DNA of 6,417 bases from a virus (lineage: Duplodnaviria; Heunggongvirae; Uroviricota; Caudoviricetes): the IMG/VR virus record IMGVR_UViG_2693429748_000018; one strand, written 5' to 3'. The translations under genes and the position numbers were made by a program. The first letter of the stretch is position 1, and each line of letters opens with the position of its first letter. Below are positions 1 through 5,743 of the stretch, piece after piece. A model generated the notes under the pieces. It saw only the letters and a program-made list of their open reading frames with translations, did no database searches and was not told the DNA's origin.

Positions 1-419
1 TCCAGTATCCGGATGGTAAGCCGCCGGTATGGGCAAAGTGTACGAAAGGTGTGTATCCGTCTTACTGGGAAGAATGGAAAAAAGTCAGGGAGGTGGTAAA
101 AGTTGCCTGTCCGGAGTGTGGCGGAAAGGGTGAGGTTTCCACCGCCTGTAAGGATTGCCGTGGGCGTGGTGTCGCCATTCATCGTGAAGAGTCGGTAAAA
201 CGTGGTATGCCTGTTATCAGAGACTGCCAGCGTTGTGGTGGTCGTGGCTATGAAAGACTACCATCAACGGAGGCATTTAATGCTATATGCGAGGTGACAA
301 ACCAGATAACACGCGCGTCATGGGAAAAAACAGTTAAGAAATTTTATGATGCGCTGGTGACCCGGTTTGATATTGAAGAAGCATGGGCTGAGCGGCAGTT
401 AAAAAAGGTAACTAGGTAA
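1..419 (+). CDS. Q: Late-gene antiterminator Q, lambda type (3' portion; 5' end lies left of the window)
   Basis: Frame 3 is open from nt 3 to the TAA at 417-419, so the 122-aa track ORF (GTG at 51) is only the C-terminal part of a longer gene. It carries three Cys pairs (CPECGGKG, CKDCRGRG, CQRCGGRG) and a tail ...KKFYDALVTRF...KKVTR that matches, from memory, the zinc-binding C-terminal half of lambda Q. It is immediately followed by a lambda-like pR'/qut sequence. Confidence 0.8.
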   Translation, partial: QYPDGKPPVWAKCTKGVYPSYWEEWKKVREVVKVACPECGGKGEVSTACKDCRGRGVAIHREESVKRGMPVIRDCQRCGGRGYERLPSTEAFNAICEVTNQITRASWEKTVKKFYDALVTRFDIEEAWAERQLKKVTR

Positions 420-421
420 GG

Positions 422-464
422 TTGATTTTTCCGGAATCTGTGGTAAATTCGTCATAACGATGGG
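422..464 (+). promoter_or_regulatory. Late promoter pR' with Q-utilisation/pause region (lambda-like)
   Basis: TTGATT (422-427), 16-bp spacer, TG at 441-442, TAAATT (444-449), then CGTCATA and ACGATGGG (457-464). Lambda pR' reads GGTAAATT-TGACTCA-ACGATGGG (from memory), so the -10 and the start of the 6S transcript are both conserved. Predicted transcription start near 457. Confidence 0.6.
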
Positions 465-498
465 CGTTTTATGCCTGACGTTAGAAGAGTTTCTACAA

Positions 499-520
499 CC
501 CGCCGCCGAGCGGGTTTTTT
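499..520 (+). terminator. Intrinsic terminator, tR'-like, about 45-65 nt downstream of the predicted pR' start
   Basis: Stem CCCGC (500-504) / GCGGG (510-514) with loop CGCCGA, followed by TTTTTT (515-520). Confidence 0.6.
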
Positions 521-1703: not shown

Positions 1704-1907
1704 ATACATATCTGGATTATCACCTGTTACGGTAAAAAGTGATTGCTTACTGTTTTTGTGAATGGCATTGCAGCAGCCGGATAATGTCAGTGCTGGCTGA
1801 CGGTGTGCTGGTGGCGGGTGTGGTGGTTGTTGCTTTCCCGTTGCTGAAAAAGAAAACGCCAGACTGTTAGCCGGGTATCAGTTAGCGGGAGAAATTTTTA
1901 AATACTT

Positions 1908-2130
1908 CACAATTCAGGCGGTTGACTGTTGTCTGGTTTGCGGGGAGTTTGTTAAAAGAAACTGGCATGGTGAATCCCCCTGTGCGGAGGGGCAATCAGC
2001 GAGTAGGTATATGGGATAATCGCGGATTCAGGTGCTGGTACTGAATTCACCGGGAGGCACCCGGCACCATGCAATGGCACATAGCGCCACTCTCCAGCCC
2101 CTCTCCGGAGGGGCTGTTTATATTGATTTT
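1908..2130 (+). repeat. Structured non-coding module, copy A (promoter-like TTGACT, internal hairpins, terminal intrinsic terminator)
   Basis: Begins CACAATTCAG (1908-1917), then TTGACT (1922-1927), hairpin CCCCT-GTGCGG-AGGGG, hairpin CCGGG-AGGCA-CCCGG, ending in terminator stem AGCCCCTC (2096-2103) / GAGGGGCT (2108-2115) with loop TCCG and a T-rich tail. Near-identical to copy B, about 70-75% to copy C. Small ORFs inside are not conserved between copies. Confidence 0.8.
2096..2130 (+). terminator. Intrinsic terminator ending module copy A
   Basis: Perfect 8-bp GC-rich stem AGCCCCTC/GAGGGGCT, 4-nt loop, then GTTTATATTGATTTT. Confidence 0.6.
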
Positions 2131-2148
2131 GTCAGATGTGAGTAAACT

Positions 2149-2180
2149 CCTTATGGACTTTGTTGTTTTAGTCCATAAGG
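2149..2180. repeat. Perfect 11-bp inverted repeat (CCTTATGGACT ... AGTCCATAAGG) with 10-nt loop at the 3' end of the minus-strand gene
   Basis: 2149-2159 is the exact reverse complement of 2170-2180. It overlaps the stop codon of the 2151-2486 minus-strand ORF. Confidence 0.7.
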
Positions 2181-2486
2181 ACATATTTGCAGAGTGCAAC
2201 GGTTATTAAAGCATTCATTCAATACGTTATCTGTATTTGTAGGGCATTCCTGGCTATTTTTGATTGAATTCCAGAATGTTTTATTGAATGGTACTACGTT
2301 GTAAATGGTTACAGGTAGCACTTTGTTATTGAGCATGATGCCTGTGTGAGTCAGTGTAAATATACTTTCAGGAGGTAAGAAAGCATCCGATTGATACCAG
2401 ATTATTAATTTTATTTTACTCCATATGACTGAAAAAGATATTCCGCATGATGGCTGGATAACTGTATCAATCACAATCCACTTCAT
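2151..2486 (-). CDS. Hypothetical 111-aa Cys-containing protein on the minus strand inside an AT-rich insert
   Basis: ATG (plus-strand CAT at 2484-2486) preceded on the minus strand by AACAAGGAAACTAA, a good Shine-Dalgarno (AAGGA) 6-7 nt upstream. Candidate promoter further upstream on the minus strand: TTTACA, about 15 bp, TATACT. The region is visibly AT-rich relative to its flanks. The 3' end overlaps a perfect 11-bp inverted repeat (2149-2180). No family recognised. Confidence 0.5.
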
Positions 2487-2746
2487 TTAGTTTCCTTGTT
2501 TATGCCTTGCTGGTGATGTTCTGAAAAGTATAAATGATATTTTTGAATGTAAACCATAGAGCAGAATTATTTTTCTGATGTTGTTTATTGTTTATTTAAA
2601 TGCAGGGTGGTTTATATCTCGTCTTGTAGTTTATCCATGCATATCTGCTTGATAATCAGGTTTTTATTTAAGGTATGGTTTTGTGTTTTTTCTGTATTAC
2701 ATGTCAGGTATTTTAAAGAATTATTTTTCAGATGGTGGAAAGAACC

Positions 2747-2806
2747 ATGGCATTTAAACACTATGATGTTGTCAGACTGGCTCGCTTTTGCGGGCCTTTT
2801 TTTTAA
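2747..2806 (+). pseudogene. Truncated duplicate of the esterase (nanS-p) 5' end: 19 codons then stop
   Basis: ATGGCATTTAAACACTATGATGTTGTCAGACTGGCT... encodes MAFKHYDVVRLARFCGPFF*. The first 9-10 codons match the start of the full-length gene at 3740 (MAFKHYDVVR...). It is followed by a T-run. Confidence 0.6.
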
Positions 2807-2812
2807 ATGTCT

Positions 2813-3025
2813 CACAATTCAGACGGTTGACAGTTGTCTGTTTTGCGGGGAGTTTGTTAAAAGAAACTGGCATGGTGAATCCCCCTGTGCGGAGGGGCAA
2901 TCAGCGAGTAGGTATATGGGATAATCGCGGATTCAGGTGCTGGTACTGAATTCACCGGGAGGCACCCGGCATCATGCAATGGCACATAGCGCCACTCTCC
3001 AGCCCTCTCCGGAGGGGCTTTTCTG
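2813..3025 (+). repeat. Structured non-coding module, copy B
   Basis: CACAATTCAG (2813-2822), TTGACA (2827-2832), the same two hairpins as copy A, and terminal stem CCCTC/GAGGG with loop TCCG followed by CTTTTCT. Differs from copy A at only a handful of positions over about 205 bp. Confidence 0.8.
3002..3025 (+). terminator. Intrinsic terminator ending module copy B
   Basis: GC-rich stem CCCTC (3003-3007) / GAGGG (3012-3016), loop TCCG, then a T-rich tract. Confidence 0.5.
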
Positions 3026-3213
3026 TGCCGGATACATCACAGTTTCTGGAACCTTAGGTACTACAGTATCAGTCAGGGTGCTATATTTTCAGATGTGATG
3101 AAAGCCTGTCAGCAGGCAGGGCGTATCGGAAATGACCCAGTAGAGAAAACGTTGACTCAGATACCGGTGCTGAGTTACCGGGAAACCGGCATCACATGAC
3201 CGCTATCCTTCCA

Positions 3214-3240
3214 GGCCCATCCGCTCCGGTGGGCCTTTTT
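3214..3240 (+). terminator. Intrinsic terminator just upstream of module copy C
   Basis: Stem GGCCCA (3214-3219) / TGGGCC (3230-3235) with an inner CCG/CGG pairing, followed by TTTTT (3236-3240). Confidence 0.5.
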
Positions 3241-3279
3241 ACTGCAGAAAACAGGTTCCCCGTTAAATGCTATGTTGCT

Positions 3280-3511
3280 CACAATTCAGTAAGTTGACAG
3301 TTGCCTGTCAGACTGGGCATTTGTTAAAAAAATTTCGCATGGTGAATCCCCCTGAGCGGAGGGGCGACTGGTGACGGTATAATCTCTGATTATCAAAACG
3401 AGAATGACGCGGGTTTAGTGGCACCGGGCTGAACTCACCGGGAGGCACCCGGCACCATGTGCATGATGATACAGATACGCGGCTTTAGCCCCTCTCCGGA
3501 GGGGTTTTCTT
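3280..3511 (+). repeat. Structured non-coding module, copy C (diverged)
   Basis: CACAATTCAG (3280-3289), TTGACA, and conserved blocks GGTGAATCCCCCTG.GCGGAGGGGC, CTCACCGGGAGGCACCCGGCACCATG and terminal CCCCTC-TCCG-GAGGGG followed by TTTTCTT. The blocks between them are substituted or inserted relative to A/B, including a perfect TATAAT in GGTATAATC. Confidence 0.75.
3489..3511 (+). terminator. Intrinsic terminator ending module copy C
   Basis: Stem CCCCTC (3489-3494) / GAGGGG (3499-3504), loop TCCG, then TTTTCTT. Confidence 0.6.
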
Positions 3512-3517
3512 GTGGGC

Positions 3518-3546
3518 AAAAAAAGCCCGCGCTGGGAGACGCGGGC
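3518..3546 (-). terminator. Minus-strand intrinsic terminator, convergent with the copy C terminator
   Basis: Plus strand reads AAAAAAA (3518-3524), GCCCGCG (3525-3531), loop CTGGGAGA, CGCGGGC (3540-3546). On the minus strand this is a perfect 7-bp GC stem followed by a U7 run. There is no U-run after it on the plus strand. Confidence 0.45.
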
Positions 3547-3739
3547 GGCAAGGAATAAACAATAAAACGTGAAGTAATATTTCAGCTGGCGAATAATACC
3601 CCATAGTAATCACTCTGCGCAACTGCGCGGTCTTTTTCGAATTGCGGGCTGTCGTCTCTCTTCTGCCATTGTCCTGTAACTTCCGGACTTCAGCCCGCTC
3701 CTTATTTTACTCACAATATTATCCCGGCCGGGAGGATTC

Positions 3740-5593
3740 ATGGCATTTAAACACTATGACGTGGTCAGGGCGGCATCGCCGTCAGACCTTGCGAAACGAC
3801 TGACACAAAAACTGAAGGAGGGCTGGCAGCCGTTTGGTAGTCCGGTGGCCATAACCCCTTATACCCTGATGCAGGCGATTGCAGCAGAAGGTGATGTGGT
3901 CGTCAGTGGTGCAACTGAGCCGGAGTGGTACTACGTCATCGTACTGGCCGGGCAATCCAATGCCATGGCTTACGGTGAAGGTCTTCCGCTTCCGGATTCA
4001 TACGATGCGCCCCATCCGCGCATTAAGCAACTGGCCCGTCGTAACACAGTGACTCCCGGTGGTGAAGTATGCGTATTTAACGACATCATTCCTGCTGACC
4101 ATTGTCTGCATGATGTTCAGGATATGAGTACGATTAACCATCCCCGGGCTGACCTGAGCAAAGGGCAGTACGGCTGTGTCGGACAGGGCTTACATATTGC
4201 CAAAAAACTGCTTCCGTATATCCCTAATAATGCGGGGATCCTGCTGGTACCATGCTGTTGTGGTGGTTCGGCATTCACCCAGGGCACGGAGGGGACATTC
4301 AGCGAGTCCACGGGGGCCAGTCAGGATTCGGCTCGCTGGGGAGTGGGTAAGCCGTTATATCAGGATCTGCTTTTCCGCACGAAGGCAGCATTGCAGAAAA
4401 ACCCGAAAAACGTTTTGCTGGCGATATGCTGGATGCAGGGGGAATTCGATATGACGAATGCCAGTTACGCCCAGCAGCCAGCAGCATTTCTTGCAATGGT
4501 ACAGCAGTTCCGTGCTGACCTTGCCGGGCTGGCGGCGCAGTGTCACGGTGGAAGTCCGGCATCAGTCCCCTGGATTTGTGGCGACACGACATACGCGTGG
4601 AAACAAGAACACGGTACGCAATATGAAGTGGTATATGGTGCATATAAAGGTAAAGAATCCCAGCAGATTTATTTTGTTCCCTTTATGACCGATGGTAGCG
4701 GAGTTAATACACCGACAAACAACCCGTCAGAAGATCCTGATATTGCCGGGTCTGGTTATTACGGTTCGGCATCCCGAACGAACAAAAACTGGGTATCATC
4801 AAATCGCCCGACGCATTTCAGCTCATGGGCGCGTCGTGGCATTATTCCCGATCGTATGGCAACTGCTATTCTGAACGTAGCCGGTCGCACCTTAGCCTTC
4901 ATTAGTGGTAAGGCACCGGAAATCAAACCCTCGCCCGGCGGCGACACGCCATCGGGGCCGTCTGAAGATGCATCCATACGCACAATCTCCCTGTTGCCGA
5001 CAGCCGGAGACGCTGCTGCGCAGGGCTGGAGCATTAAGAATGGCGGAGTTCAGTTGTCAGATGGTGTATTTAAGATCACCAAGCAGAGCAATAAAGCCTG
5101 GTCCCTGACGCGCCCGGTGGATGACGCAGTCTCCCTGCTGACACGGGGTGGCAGACTGAGCTGTAAGTTTCGACTGTCAGGCGCACTGACCAACAACCAG
5201 TTCGGTCTGGGAATTTATCTGTATACCGATGTAGCGTTACCTGACGTCGTGGCGATGACCGGGACTGGTAACCCGTTCCTGATGTCGTTCTTCACCCAGA
5301 CCACAGACGGCAAACTGAATCTGATGCATCACAAGAAAGCAGGAAACACAAAGTTGGGCGAGTTCGGGAATTACAGTAACGACTGGCTGACGCTGGAGCT
5401 GGTGTTCACCGCCGGCAGTGCCACGGTTACTCCGAAACTGAATGGAGTGGCTGGCCCGGCATTCCAGGTCATAAAAGACAGTCTGACACTGGGGCTGAAT
5501 GCGCTGACGCTGACGGATATTACCAAAAATGCAGCGTATGGCGTTGAGATAGAAAGTCTGGTGCTGGAGATAAATGCACCGGCATCATCATAA
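3740..5593 (+). CDS. nanS-p: Prophage-encoded sialate (9-O-acetyl-N-acetylneuraminic acid) O-acetylesterase, NanS-p/YjhS family (SGNH/DUF303-type), 617 aa
   Basis: ATG at 3740 with a strong Shine-Dalgarno (GGGAGG 7-8 nt upstream). The N-terminus MAFKHYDVV... and the conserved block VLAGQSNAMAYGEGLP (GQSN catalytic-serine motif of sialate O-acetylesterases) match the nanS-p ORF found just downstream of stx in Stx phages and in other lambdoid prophages. The smaller ORFs nested in both strands are shadow frames. Confidence 0.88.
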   Translation: MAFKHYDVVRAASPSDLAKRLTQKLKEGWQPFGSPVAITPYTLMQAIAAEGDVVVSGATEPEWYYVIVLAGQSNAMAYGEGLPLPDSYDAPHPRIKQLARRNTVTPGGEVCVFNDIIPADHCLHDVQDMSTINHPRADLSKGQYGCVGQGLHIAKKLLPYIPNNAGILLVPCCCGGSAFTQGTEGTFSESTGASQDSARWGVGKPLYQDLLFRTKAALQKNPKNVLLAICWMQGEFDMTNASYAQQPAAFLAMVQQFRADLAGLAAQCHGGSPASVPWICGDTTYAWKQEHGTQYEVVYGAYKGKESQQIYFVPFMTDGSGVNTPTNNPSEDPDIAGSGYYGSASRTNKNWVSSNRPTHFSSWARRGIIPDRMATAILNVAGRTLAFISGKAPEIKPSPGGDTPSGPSEDASIRTISLLPTAGDAAAQGWSIKNGGVQLSDGVFKITKQSNKAWSLTRPVDDAVSLLTRGGRLSCKFRLSGALTNNQFGLGIYLYTDVALPDVVAMTGTGNPFLMSFFTQTTDGKLNLMHHKKAGNTKLGEFGNYSNDWLTLELVFTAGSATVTPKLNGVAGPAFQVIKDSLTLGLNALTLTDITKNAAYGVEIESLVLEINAPASS

Positions 5594-5678
5594 AAAGTGA
5601 GCCAGCCAAATGGAAGGTATCGTTAAACTCACCGGTAGTGTCAGTGGGTCGTCTGAGATGCCTGCATGAGTTATCAGA

Positions 5679-5710
5679 GCCATCAGTACTTAACTGGTGG
5701 CTTTTTTTAT
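5679..5710 (+). terminator. Intrinsic terminator between the esterase gene and the lysis cassette
   Basis: Stem GCCATCAG (5679-5686) / CTGGTGGC (5694-5701), 8 bp including one G-U pair, loop TACTTAA, followed by TTTTTTTATT (5702-5711). Confidence 0.6.
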
Positions 5711-5743
5711 TGTTGTCAGCTTCCGGATAACGGGAGACGGGGT

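Follow-up and report, generated by a model that had tools for sequence, protein, structure and literature searches.

Repeated units of the STnc100 family

Hfq-bound small RNAs (sRNAs) are encoded between the late promoter pR' and the lysis genes in at least eight lambdoid prophages of Sakai, often as convergent pairs (Tree et al. 2014). Here, a stretch of 6,417 nt of viral DNA (Caudoviricetes; IMG/VR record IMGVR_UViG_2693429748_000018), in the following referred to as the window, was analyzed. It contains three repeated units, A, B and C, and a fourth, strongly diverged unit, W. With a probability of roughly 0.8, these units are paralogous sRNA genes of the STnc100 family in the lambdoid moron zone, i.e., between Q/pR' and the lysis genes.

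Several relatives have been studied experimentally. EcOnc27 lies 3' of stx2B, has AsxR as partner and was detected by northern blotting with bands of about 235/247 nt; its peak in Hfq cross-linking and analysis of cDNA (CRAC) maps to the 3' tail and terminator (Tree et al. 2014, Table S2). EcOnc27 is the same RNA as sRNA103, the overexpression of which raised the transcripts of fimZ and espA (Gruber and Sperandio 2015). EDL933 possesses 11 Rfam STnc100 copies, all of them with RNA-seq reads, and STnc100_4 was northern-positive. Outer membrane vesicles contained one STnc100 copy that is encoded 75 nt downstream of stx2, and in a machine-learning study, haemolytic uraemic syndrome (HUS) was predicted most strongly by variants in or near the stx2-linked copy (PMC12711010). 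In enteropathogenic Escherichia coli (EPEC) E2348/69, PasD1 and PasD2, homologues of EcOnc13, were shown to be Hfq-dependent, with northern signals and with targets from the ligation and sequencing of interacting RNAs (RIL-seq); the PasD chimeras map to the 3' tail (Pearl Mizrahi 2021). A preprint linked STnc100 structurally to PasD1/PasD2 and described its association with Q and esterase genes (Zhu, Shabalina, Storz 2026).

The initial annotation of the window had reported three tandem copies of a structured, non-coding module. The repeat search agreed on the places of A, B and C. It aligned 1882-2100 with 2787-3005 at 94% identity over 219 nt without gaps, and returned an 88-nt block in three copies (at 1906, 2811 and 3278; 82-95% identity), a 31-nt block in three copies (at 2041, 2946 and 3429; 97% identity) and terminator-like copies at 2099, 3003 and 3490. 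Alignment with MAFFT showed A and B to be near-identical and C to be about 60-65% identical to both, with 24 gapped columns, as had been proposed. The window contains 22 terminator-like sites as compared to 6.7 ± 2.5 in shuffles, and these include 2095-2116, 3001-3019 and 3487-3506.

The Rfam/Infernal scan, which had been suggested as a check, gave full-length matches of all three units (124-161 bits) to RF02076, Gammaproteobacterial sRNA STnc100, with its curated gathering cutoff of 47 bits. Over model positions 1-206, unit C matched at 3308-3517 (161.0 bits, E 3.3e-37), unit A at 1936-2125 (132.4 bits, E 7e-30) and unit B at 2841-3030 (123.6 bits, E 1.3e-27). Thus, it was confirmed that the resemblance is far beyond chance. 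A second covariance model, R1, was built from A1, an alignment of 50 distinct cores with relatives gathered by a motif scan of viral contigs, and scored A, B and C with 116.2, 112.4 and 95.7 bits, respectively. Among the functions that had been considered initially, sRNA genes are the best supported. The layout had not been recognized at that time; the family is, however, already in Rfam and described for the Sakai prophages, so that A, B and C are copies of an already catalogued prophage sRNA gene, an ordinary finding.

Other identities were rejected. With cmscan at E <= 1, nothing except STnc100 was reported within 1900-3517. A tRNA-like element, a ribozyme or a riboswitch was dismissed, since Rfam gave no match and ARAGORN called just the two true tRNAs. 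A sub-threshold STnc100 match at 2699-2808 (27 bits) was set aside: it spans a nanS stub and a terminator, is missed by the core model and is probably driven by the terminator. The small open reading frames (ORFs) differ as had been stated, with 25 codons in A/B and 11 in C, and are unconserved between the units, which speaks for non-coding units and against a coding reading. The motif GGAGG...AUG at P5/P1 was rejected as a coding start because the resulting ORFs cross the terminator in differing frames.

The features of the three canonical units, all on the + strand, are as follows:

1908..2124, + strand: unit A, STnc100-family sRNA gene (Rfam, R1, folding, terminator scan, promoter geometry)
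1908-1917, + strand: unit A, upstream block CACAATTCAG
1922-1927, + strand: unit A, TTGACT, the hexamer of the initial annotation
1929-1934, + strand: unit A, -35 TTGTCT (promoter geometry)
1950-1958, + strand: unit A, extended -10 TGT-TAAAAG (promoter geometry)
G1965, + strand: unit A, predicted +1
1965-1972 with 2065-2072, + strand: unit A, helix P1
1975-1980 with 1986-1992, + strand: unit A, helix P2, A1988 bulged
2024-2031 with 2041-2048, + strand: unit A, helix P4
2050-2054 with 2060-2064, + strand: unit A, helix P5
2073-2094, + strand: unit A, 3' tail
2095-2116, + strand: unit A, terminator, followed by a U tract (terminator scan)
2813..3028, + strand: unit B, STnc100-family sRNA gene (Rfam, R1, 94% identity to A)
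2834-2839, + strand: unit B, -35 TTGTCT
2858-2863, + strand: unit B, -10 TAAAAG
G2870, + strand: unit B, predicted +1
2870-2877 with 2970-2977, + strand: unit B, helix P1, one G-U pair
2955-2959 with 2965-2969, + strand: unit B, helix P5
3001-3019, + strand: unit B, terminator, 1-nt deletion relative to A
3280..3513, + strand: unit C, STnc100-family sRNA gene (Rfam, R1, folding, 933W comparison)
3280-3289, + strand: unit C, upstream block CACAATTCAG
3294-3299, + strand: unit C, TTGACA, the hexamer of the initial annotation
3301-3306, + strand: unit C, -35 TTGCCT
3325-3330, + strand: unit C, -10 TAAAAA
G3337, + strand: unit C, predicted +1
3337-3344 with 3453-3460, + strand: unit C, helix P1
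3347-3353 with 3360-3367, + strand: unit C, helix P2
3411-3419 with 3428-3436, + strand: unit C, helix P4
3438-3442 with 3448-3452, + strand: unit C, helix P5
3487-3506, + strand: unit C, terminator (terminator scan)

Fold, promoter geometry and described relatives

Four helices, P1, P2, P4 and P5, were supported by RNAalifold and pair counting on the 50 distinct cores. P1, the closing helix, pairs GCAUGGUG with CACCAUGC and has five covarying pairs; P2 is UCCC-CC[loop]GG-A-GGGG with a bulged A, and P5 is CCGGG-AGGCA-CCCGG. In this set, 98.6% of the cells were paired and 10 pairs covaried, as compared to 40-48% paired cells in slid controls, and 0 of 500 shuffles matched the pairing support of the real alignment. 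P5 was invariant here because the search motif lay in it. Among 84 distinct members aligned with R1, covariation was found in 20 of the 24 pairs, P2 and P5 included (slid controls 42-46% paired). Thus, compensatory changes support the stems, and the conserved fold of the units is strongly supported. One helix of the initial annotation, GGTGAAT with ATTCACC, showed zero covariation, with one pair broken in 26 of the 50 sequences; GGUG belongs to P1 and AUUC to hairpin P4, and the broken position covaries within P4 instead.

The structured domain comprises about 108-124 nt, starts at or near the predicted +1 and has a variable P3 region. Its unpaired nucleotides are invariant at three places: AA after P1, the P2 loop U-N-N-G-C plus the bulged A, and the P5 loop AGGCA. 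Across the family, the core is much better conserved than the 3' tails. The minimum-free-energy fold of unit A gave P1-P5 and the terminator (z = -3.1). For unit C, the family-consistent fold (-63.0 kcal/mol) and the minimum-free-energy fold (-63.3 kcal/mol) are isoenergetic. The latter contains an alternative pairing of P2 with the terminator, which was rejected as a switch because it is unconserved in lineages with other terminators and because the family fold has the same energy.

When members were anchored on the first nucleotide of P1, TTGNNN fell at about -36..-31 and was followed by a -10-like hexamer at about -13..-7, and these hexamers hold their distance from P1 even in otherwise unalignable lineages. 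In the promoters of A, B and C, an 18-nt spacer separates TTGTCT or TTGCCT from TAAAAG or TAAAAA, which has TG in front of it, and this spacing places +1 at G1965, G2870 and G3337. The 5' end of PasD2 derived from RNA-seq coverage (NC_011601 741157) is the equivalent G, the first nucleotide of P1. The hexamer TTGAC(T/A) had initially been read as the -35. It lies at -43..-38. Its distance to the -10 is 24-25 nt, which puts it 7 nt upstream of the expected -35, and the correctly spaced -35 is the adjoining TTGTCT or TTGCCT. With the -35 reassigned in this way, the proposed order of promoter, structured RNA and intrinsic terminator in each unit stands, as judged by Rfam, the terminator scan and promoter geometry. 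Positions 1936-1964 and their equivalents in B and C, the first approximately 29 positions of RF02076, consist of the -35/-10 spacer and the -10.

An additional upstream block was found only in STnc100-type copies, at -57..-38 from the fold:

1908-1927, 2813-2832 and 3280-3299, + strand: block (T)CACAATTCAG-N3-GTTGAC

In most variants, the CACAATTCAG-N3-GTTGAC block is preceded by TGTTAAAT. Its conservation tracks promoter geometry, with conserved hexamers and a variable spacer and discriminator. Since A/B and C differ in how the 57-nt upstream block folds, a conserved RNA hairpin was rejected for it. For both reasons, a role at the DNA level, as promoter or operator, is favoured. The block may serve as a site for an activator or of the UP type, or else a longer transcript of about 215-233 nt may begin there. 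By eye, a CRP site centred at -61.5 over TCACA had only one half-site in A and B.

The 933W copy between stx2B and nanS-p, EcOnc27/sRNA103, reached 98.6 bits with the core model, and unit C has an almost identical promoter region. It resembles the window units in promoter block, core fold and terminator type, and occupies the same place below the moron slot and above nanS-p, with the same convergent minus-strand partner. While 933W has one copy, the late region of the window has three canonical copies and the diverged W. The slot holds stx in 933W, whereas between the tRNAs and A of the window it holds a 117-aa ORF and a DUF3927 ORF and no stx. The 3' tails differ among A/B, C and the 933W copy; therefore, their target sets probably differ. 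In 933W (L249 3290-3307), the HUS variants (+90 T/C and +103 T deletion after stx2B) map to the extended -10 and the discriminator; judged by coordinates only, they would lie in the core promoter of EcOnc27 and not in the folded RNA.

PasD1/PasD2 share with the units the P1, P2, P4 domain, the promoter geometry and the synteny Q-DUF3927-sRNA-esterase or holin; the DUF3927 ORF precedes PasD1/PasD2 in E2348/69 as well (RefSeq annotation of L002, L003, L124 and L125). Unlike the units, PasD is without P5 and has its own 3' tail (seed UGUGAG) and terminator. The scores of PasD were only 41 bits for RF02076 and 31 bits for the core model, and nhmmer aligned it to the units only over profile positions 40-157 (32 bits), the 3' tails being unrelated. 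The window units were rejected as PasD alleles on comparison of the 3' region, seed and P5. AsxR/AgvB and EcOnc08/21/42 occur in the same moron zone and, like the units, combine conserved with variable pairing parts; they differ in being encoded on the opposite strand and in showing no similarity to the units, and AsxR and AgvB have only 51-60 nt. Rfam gave no AsxR or AgvB match in the window, and an AsxR, AgvB or PasA identity of the flanking sRNA-like regions was rejected for want of Rfam support.

The initial annotation had compared the units to the lambda pR'-6S-tR' unit and to StxS. As StxS, which binds Hfq, and lambda 6S, the units would give short, terminated late-region transcripts that are read through by Q-modified polymerase. 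In contrast, StxS/6S initiate at the Q-controlled late promoter directly behind Q, while the units use their own promoters 1.5-2.9 kb downstream and are two to three times longer. The analogy was rejected. The window has its own pR'/tR'-like pair at about 421-520, the place at which a StxS/6S-type transcript would arise, and the units share with this region the terminator shape only (68%, repeat D3).

The same observations bear on the proposal that the units are extra pR'/qut/tR' units or HK022 put-type antitermination sites, as decoys or otherwise, acting on RNA polymerase of the late operon. The position between Q and the lysis genes, the orientation with late transcription and the structured RNA just downstream of a promoter in each unit fit this proposal, as does a boxA-like TGCTCTT just 5' of P1 in some relatives that precede ORFs. 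The boxA-like motif is, however, absent from A, B, C and W, and the units are distant from Q and resemble the tR' region in the terminator only. The core model reached at best 11.3 bits on the whole HK022 genome (E 0.36, filters off), not at the put sites, and homologues demonstrably stop at the terminator behind each unit. Extra antitermination sites are thus extremely improbable.

Unit W and the mosaic late region

The initial count of three copies was too low: the family has four members in the window, with W at 3091-3243 overlooked, and a 21-nt stub follows A. The features of W are the following:

3082..3243, + strand: unit W, fourth, strongly diverged family member (R1, Rfam sub-cutoff, folding, 10 viral loci)
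3082-3087, + strand: unit W, -10 TATATT
3091-3198, + strand: unit W, core (R1)
3093-3100 with 3190-3197, + strand: unit W, helix P1 AUGUGAUG/CAUCACAU
3104-3108 with 3113-3117, + strand: unit W, helix P2
3153-3160 with 3170-3177, + strand: unit W, helix P4
3178-3181 with 3186-3189, + strand: unit W, helix P5 CCGG-GAAA-CCGG
3213-3236, + strand: unit W, terminator
2126..2146, + strand: 21-nt stub, 5' end of a W-type unit (repeat D7, 81% match to 3083-3103)

On RF02076, W scored 30.1 bits and is not a member by the Rfam cutoff; R1 gave 29 bits (E 7.5e-6, filters off). The minimum-free-energy fold of W independently showed P1-P5 and the terminator (z = -2.8), and W keeps every helix by compensatory changes. 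The same W copy sits between canonical copies in 10 viral loci and in E. coli MLI110.

Contrary to the initial description, the repeats do not form a strict tandem array, since an iraM cassette and a nanS 5' stub lie between A and B. L001 carries unit, W, unit and iraM in this order. Because the stub at 2126-2146 just after A repeats the start of W, the iraM cassette probably broke up an A-W arrangement. As far as the start of nanS (2780-3760), the B-W-C block was found in 353 of 5,426 complete E. coli genomes at a coverage of at least 80%, and is 99.4% identical in ATCC 11775 and NU14. In ATCC 11775, the sequence from window position 2780, terminator first, begins 15 nt after the phage tRNA array. 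Thus, B-W-C is a common stack, and the window represents a recombinant with A and iraM added upstream of this module. The A-iraM-B-W-C composite (at least 80% of 1850-3740 in one place) was found in 0 of the 5,426 genomes, a count that the rule for joining parts may make too low.

These scars raise the question of whether the copies are inert relics of serial recombination, serving at most as homology patches for mosaicism. Such relics would account for the nanS 5' stub (2737-2775), the W stub and the iraM insertion, for the differing permutations of the same modules in other genomes and for the composite being reported in no complete E. coli genome. However, compensatory substitutions keep every helix, even among A/B, C and W within the window, the promoter hexamers and terminators of A, B and C are intact, and homologous copies are transcribed. 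The idea of serial recombination, which had been raised initially, therefore holds for the mosaic layout and is contradicted as to the inertness of the units; inert copies are very unlikely.

The window as a whole is a lambdoid late or 'moron' region with the order Q, pR'/tR', tRNAs, 117-aa ORF, DUF3927, A, iraM, nanS stub, B-W-C, convergent sRNA candidate, nanS-p, holin and DUF1327:

1..419, + strand: Q antiterminator gene, 3' part (Pfam PF03589 Antiterm, E 9.5e-32)
421..520, + strand: late-promoter-like region and first terminator (tR'-like, 497-516), directly after Q as in 933W (terminator scan)
987-1062, + strand: tRNA(CAU) (ARAGORN, Rfam tRNA)
1163-1239, + strand: tRNA-Arg(UCU) (ARAGORN, Rfam tRNA)
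1350-1703: 117-aa ORF with TTG start, no Pfam match
1739..1870, + strand: DUF3927 small ORF, directly upstream of A (Pfam PF13064, E 1.7e-27)
2151..2486, - strand: iraM-like anti-adapter gene, 111 aa, moron between A and B (RefSeq 'anti-adapter protein IraM' on homologous DNA)
2737..2796, + strand: duplicated nanS-p ribosome-binding site (RBS) and first codons (2737-2775), joined to a terminator (2779-2796) (repeat D5, terminator scan)
3518..3700 (5' limit approximate), - strand: convergent sRNA candidate, terminator 3546-3525, seed CCUUGCC (terminator scan, EPEC match)
3740..5593, + strand: nanS-p-type sialate O-acetylesterase gene (Pfam DUF1737, SASA, DUF6645)

The two phage tRNAs scored 72.5 and 68 bits in Rfam. 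Between the tRNAs and the DUF3927 ORF, the 117-aa ORF fills the slot that is taken by stxAB in 933W. Pfam gave no match for the iraM-like ORF; the region upstream of this gene (2487-2747), inside the sRNA stack, is AT-rich, and the same cassette lies behind an STnc100 copy in numerous E. coli prophages as well as in vB_EcoS-series Escherichia phages. The 39 nt at 2737-2775 are 85% identical to 3730-3768 (repeat D5), and the fusion at 2737-2796 is a recombination scar; its terminator follows the tRNA array in other prophages.

The minus-strand candidate forms a convergent 'dyad' with unit C. It matches the EPEC RIL-seq sRNA E2348C_1409.E2348C_1408.IGR, a homologue of EcOnc08/21/42 with partners that include the 5' untranslated regions of cfa and dppA, and the northern probe for EcOnc08/21/42 resembles window positions 3590-3625. 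The Rfam scan of this candidate gave no match at threshold, with OmrA-B as the best (25 bits, below cutoff). Beyond nanS-p, a P21-type holin gene and a DUF1327 ORF follow. The nanS-p/holin spacer (5594-5743) ends in a strong + strand terminator (5676-5704) and matched no Rfam family; its equivalent in E2348/69 holds PasA on the opposite strand.

The 5' domain beyond the window

R1 and a genome-wide motif scan returned members in Citrobacter, Enterobacter, Klebsiella, Pantoea, Erwinia, Rahnella, Cedecea, Kluyvera and other Enterobacterales, and R1 also confirmed four loci in two metagenome-assembled genomes labelled just Bacillota and Proteobacteria. Motif matches in high-GC genomes (Streptomyces, Actinomadura and similar) were rejected, since none was confirmed by the core model. 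Homology and fold of the domain across Enterobacterales prophages are well supported. Three or four stacked copies were seen again in L138, L191, L189, L137 and L018, i.e., in Citrobacter, Enterobacter, Superficieibacter and the viral contig L018.

In some of these loci, the domain precedes genes other than an sRNA tail. The cores at 684-803 and 1310-1424 of L018 and at 11065-11188 of L191 (Citrobacter braakii) end 6-7 nt before tRNA-Arg/tRNA-Met genes. These tRNA-linked cores carry their own sigma-70-like promoters, and L018 has four copies within 2 kb. Cleavage by RNase P would free such a core as a separate RNA. In Qin, a prophage of E. coli K-12 MG1655, a core lies in the spacer between the DicF terminator and dicB (L128 2501-2629; R1 59 bits, E 2.7e-14). 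Rfam STnc100 gave 34 bits for this element, over the core only and below cutoff; its minimum-free-energy fold contains P1-P5 with compensatory variants of P2 and P5, and the dicB RBS lies in a downstream hairpin. A preprint on dicBF regulation makes no mention of a structured element in this spacer, the Pas/STnc100 preprint makes no mention of dicB, and a limited literature search found no paper linking the 5' domain to dicB. Other cores precede a Shine-Dalgarno sequence, ATG and ORF without an intervening terminator, among them a TerB-like ORF and several small ORFs. A sub-class of such ORF leaders (L015 6520-6644(-), L056, L100, L010, L017, L078 and others) has P2 in the form UGCG-GC[UAAGC]GC-A-CGCG, a boxA-like (A)TGCTCTT(A/T)C at the 5' edge of P1, and, within 30-40 nt, Shine-Dalgarno sequence, ATG and an ORF that is TerB-like or small and membrane-like.

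From this distribution, it is possible, if on balance doubtful, that the 108-124-nt domain is an autonomous RNA module with its own function, which stands at transcript starts and takes interchangeable cargos such as sRNA tails and tRNAs. Its function could be binding of a protein or ligand, or protection of the 5' end. The stacks of three or four copies would then tentatively be seen as arrays of leader cassettes and not as simple sRNA paralogues. Applied to the window, the units would primarily be cis-acting 5' leader cassettes, with the conserved domain as a 5'-terminal stabilizer or a protein/ligand platform before varied cargos, and the window forms would be short-tail leaders or attenuators gating nanS-p or the lysis genes. 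Several observations agree with such leaders: the far better conservation of the core than of the 3' tails, the start of P1 at +1, the invariant unpaired nucleotides, and the domain 6-7 nt upstream of tRNA genes or directly before ORFs such as dicB without a terminator. However, every unit in the window ends with a strong terminator, and a convergent sRNA gene and two more terminator-like hairpins lie between C and nanS-p. The homologues are discrete Hfq-bound RNAs with RIL-seq and CRAC signal in the 3' tail, no ligand or protein partner is known, and no core/terminator alternative pairing is conserved, the P2/terminator similarity of A-C being absent in other lineages. Leader cassettes as the primary role of the window units are therefore unlikely, if worth serious consideration.

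Some findings weigh against sRNA genes as the explanation of the units. The best-conserved part is the structured 5' domain and not a seed, which is atypical of base-pairing sRNAs, and since the same domain precedes tRNAs and ORFs without a terminator, the sRNA label may miss its primary function. W is below the Rfam cutoff, has a poor -35 and may be decaying, and in A and B the terminator is followed by an interrupted U tract. Transcripts that begin at P1 would have about 158-177 nt, but EcOnc27 gave northern bands of about 235/247 nt. These band sizes are closer to the length expected in 933W from around CACAAT (about 231 nt) than to that from P1 (about 173 nt), and thus fit a start near CACAATTCAG, where the initial annotation had begun the units. 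Expression, Hfq dependence and targets acting in trans are inferred for the units from their homologues. Family membership, fold, promoter/terminator geometry and mosaic origin were obtained on the units themselves.

With sRNA genes as the favoured explanation, each unit would be an autonomous transcription unit with a sigma-70 promoter (TTGYCT, 18-nt spacer, TAAAAR with TG extension), the structured domain, and a tail plus terminator. In the domain, P1, P2, P4 and P5 would surround the variable P3, with the first base pair at the predicted +1. The variable single-stranded tail and the terminator would be the Hfq-binding and target-pairing end; this assignment follows from the positions of the PasD chimeras and of the EcOnc27 CRAC peak. 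In the lysogen, by analogy to these homologues, each unit is expected to produce its own discrete, Hfq-associated sRNA, with host or prophage mRNAs as targets in trans. Since the tails of A/B, C and W differ, their targets would probably be different. After induction, Q-modified RNA polymerase is expected from established lambda biology to read through all terminators, so that stacked units would not block the late genes and could accumulate by recombination.

As filed, the units are of little significance: they belong to a catalogued sRNA family that is labelled by Infernal/Rfam in Bakta, and the block is present in hundreds of E. coli genomes. Copy number and allele content of STnc100 vary between prophages. 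RF02076 includes about 29 nt upstream of the fold that are possibly promoter DNA, which would undermine target predictions based there; with a start at P1, they would not be transcribed, and the published stxB pairing (model positions 5-15) would be void. As compared to what the sRNA label implies, the conserved 5' fold occurs more widely and is more modular.

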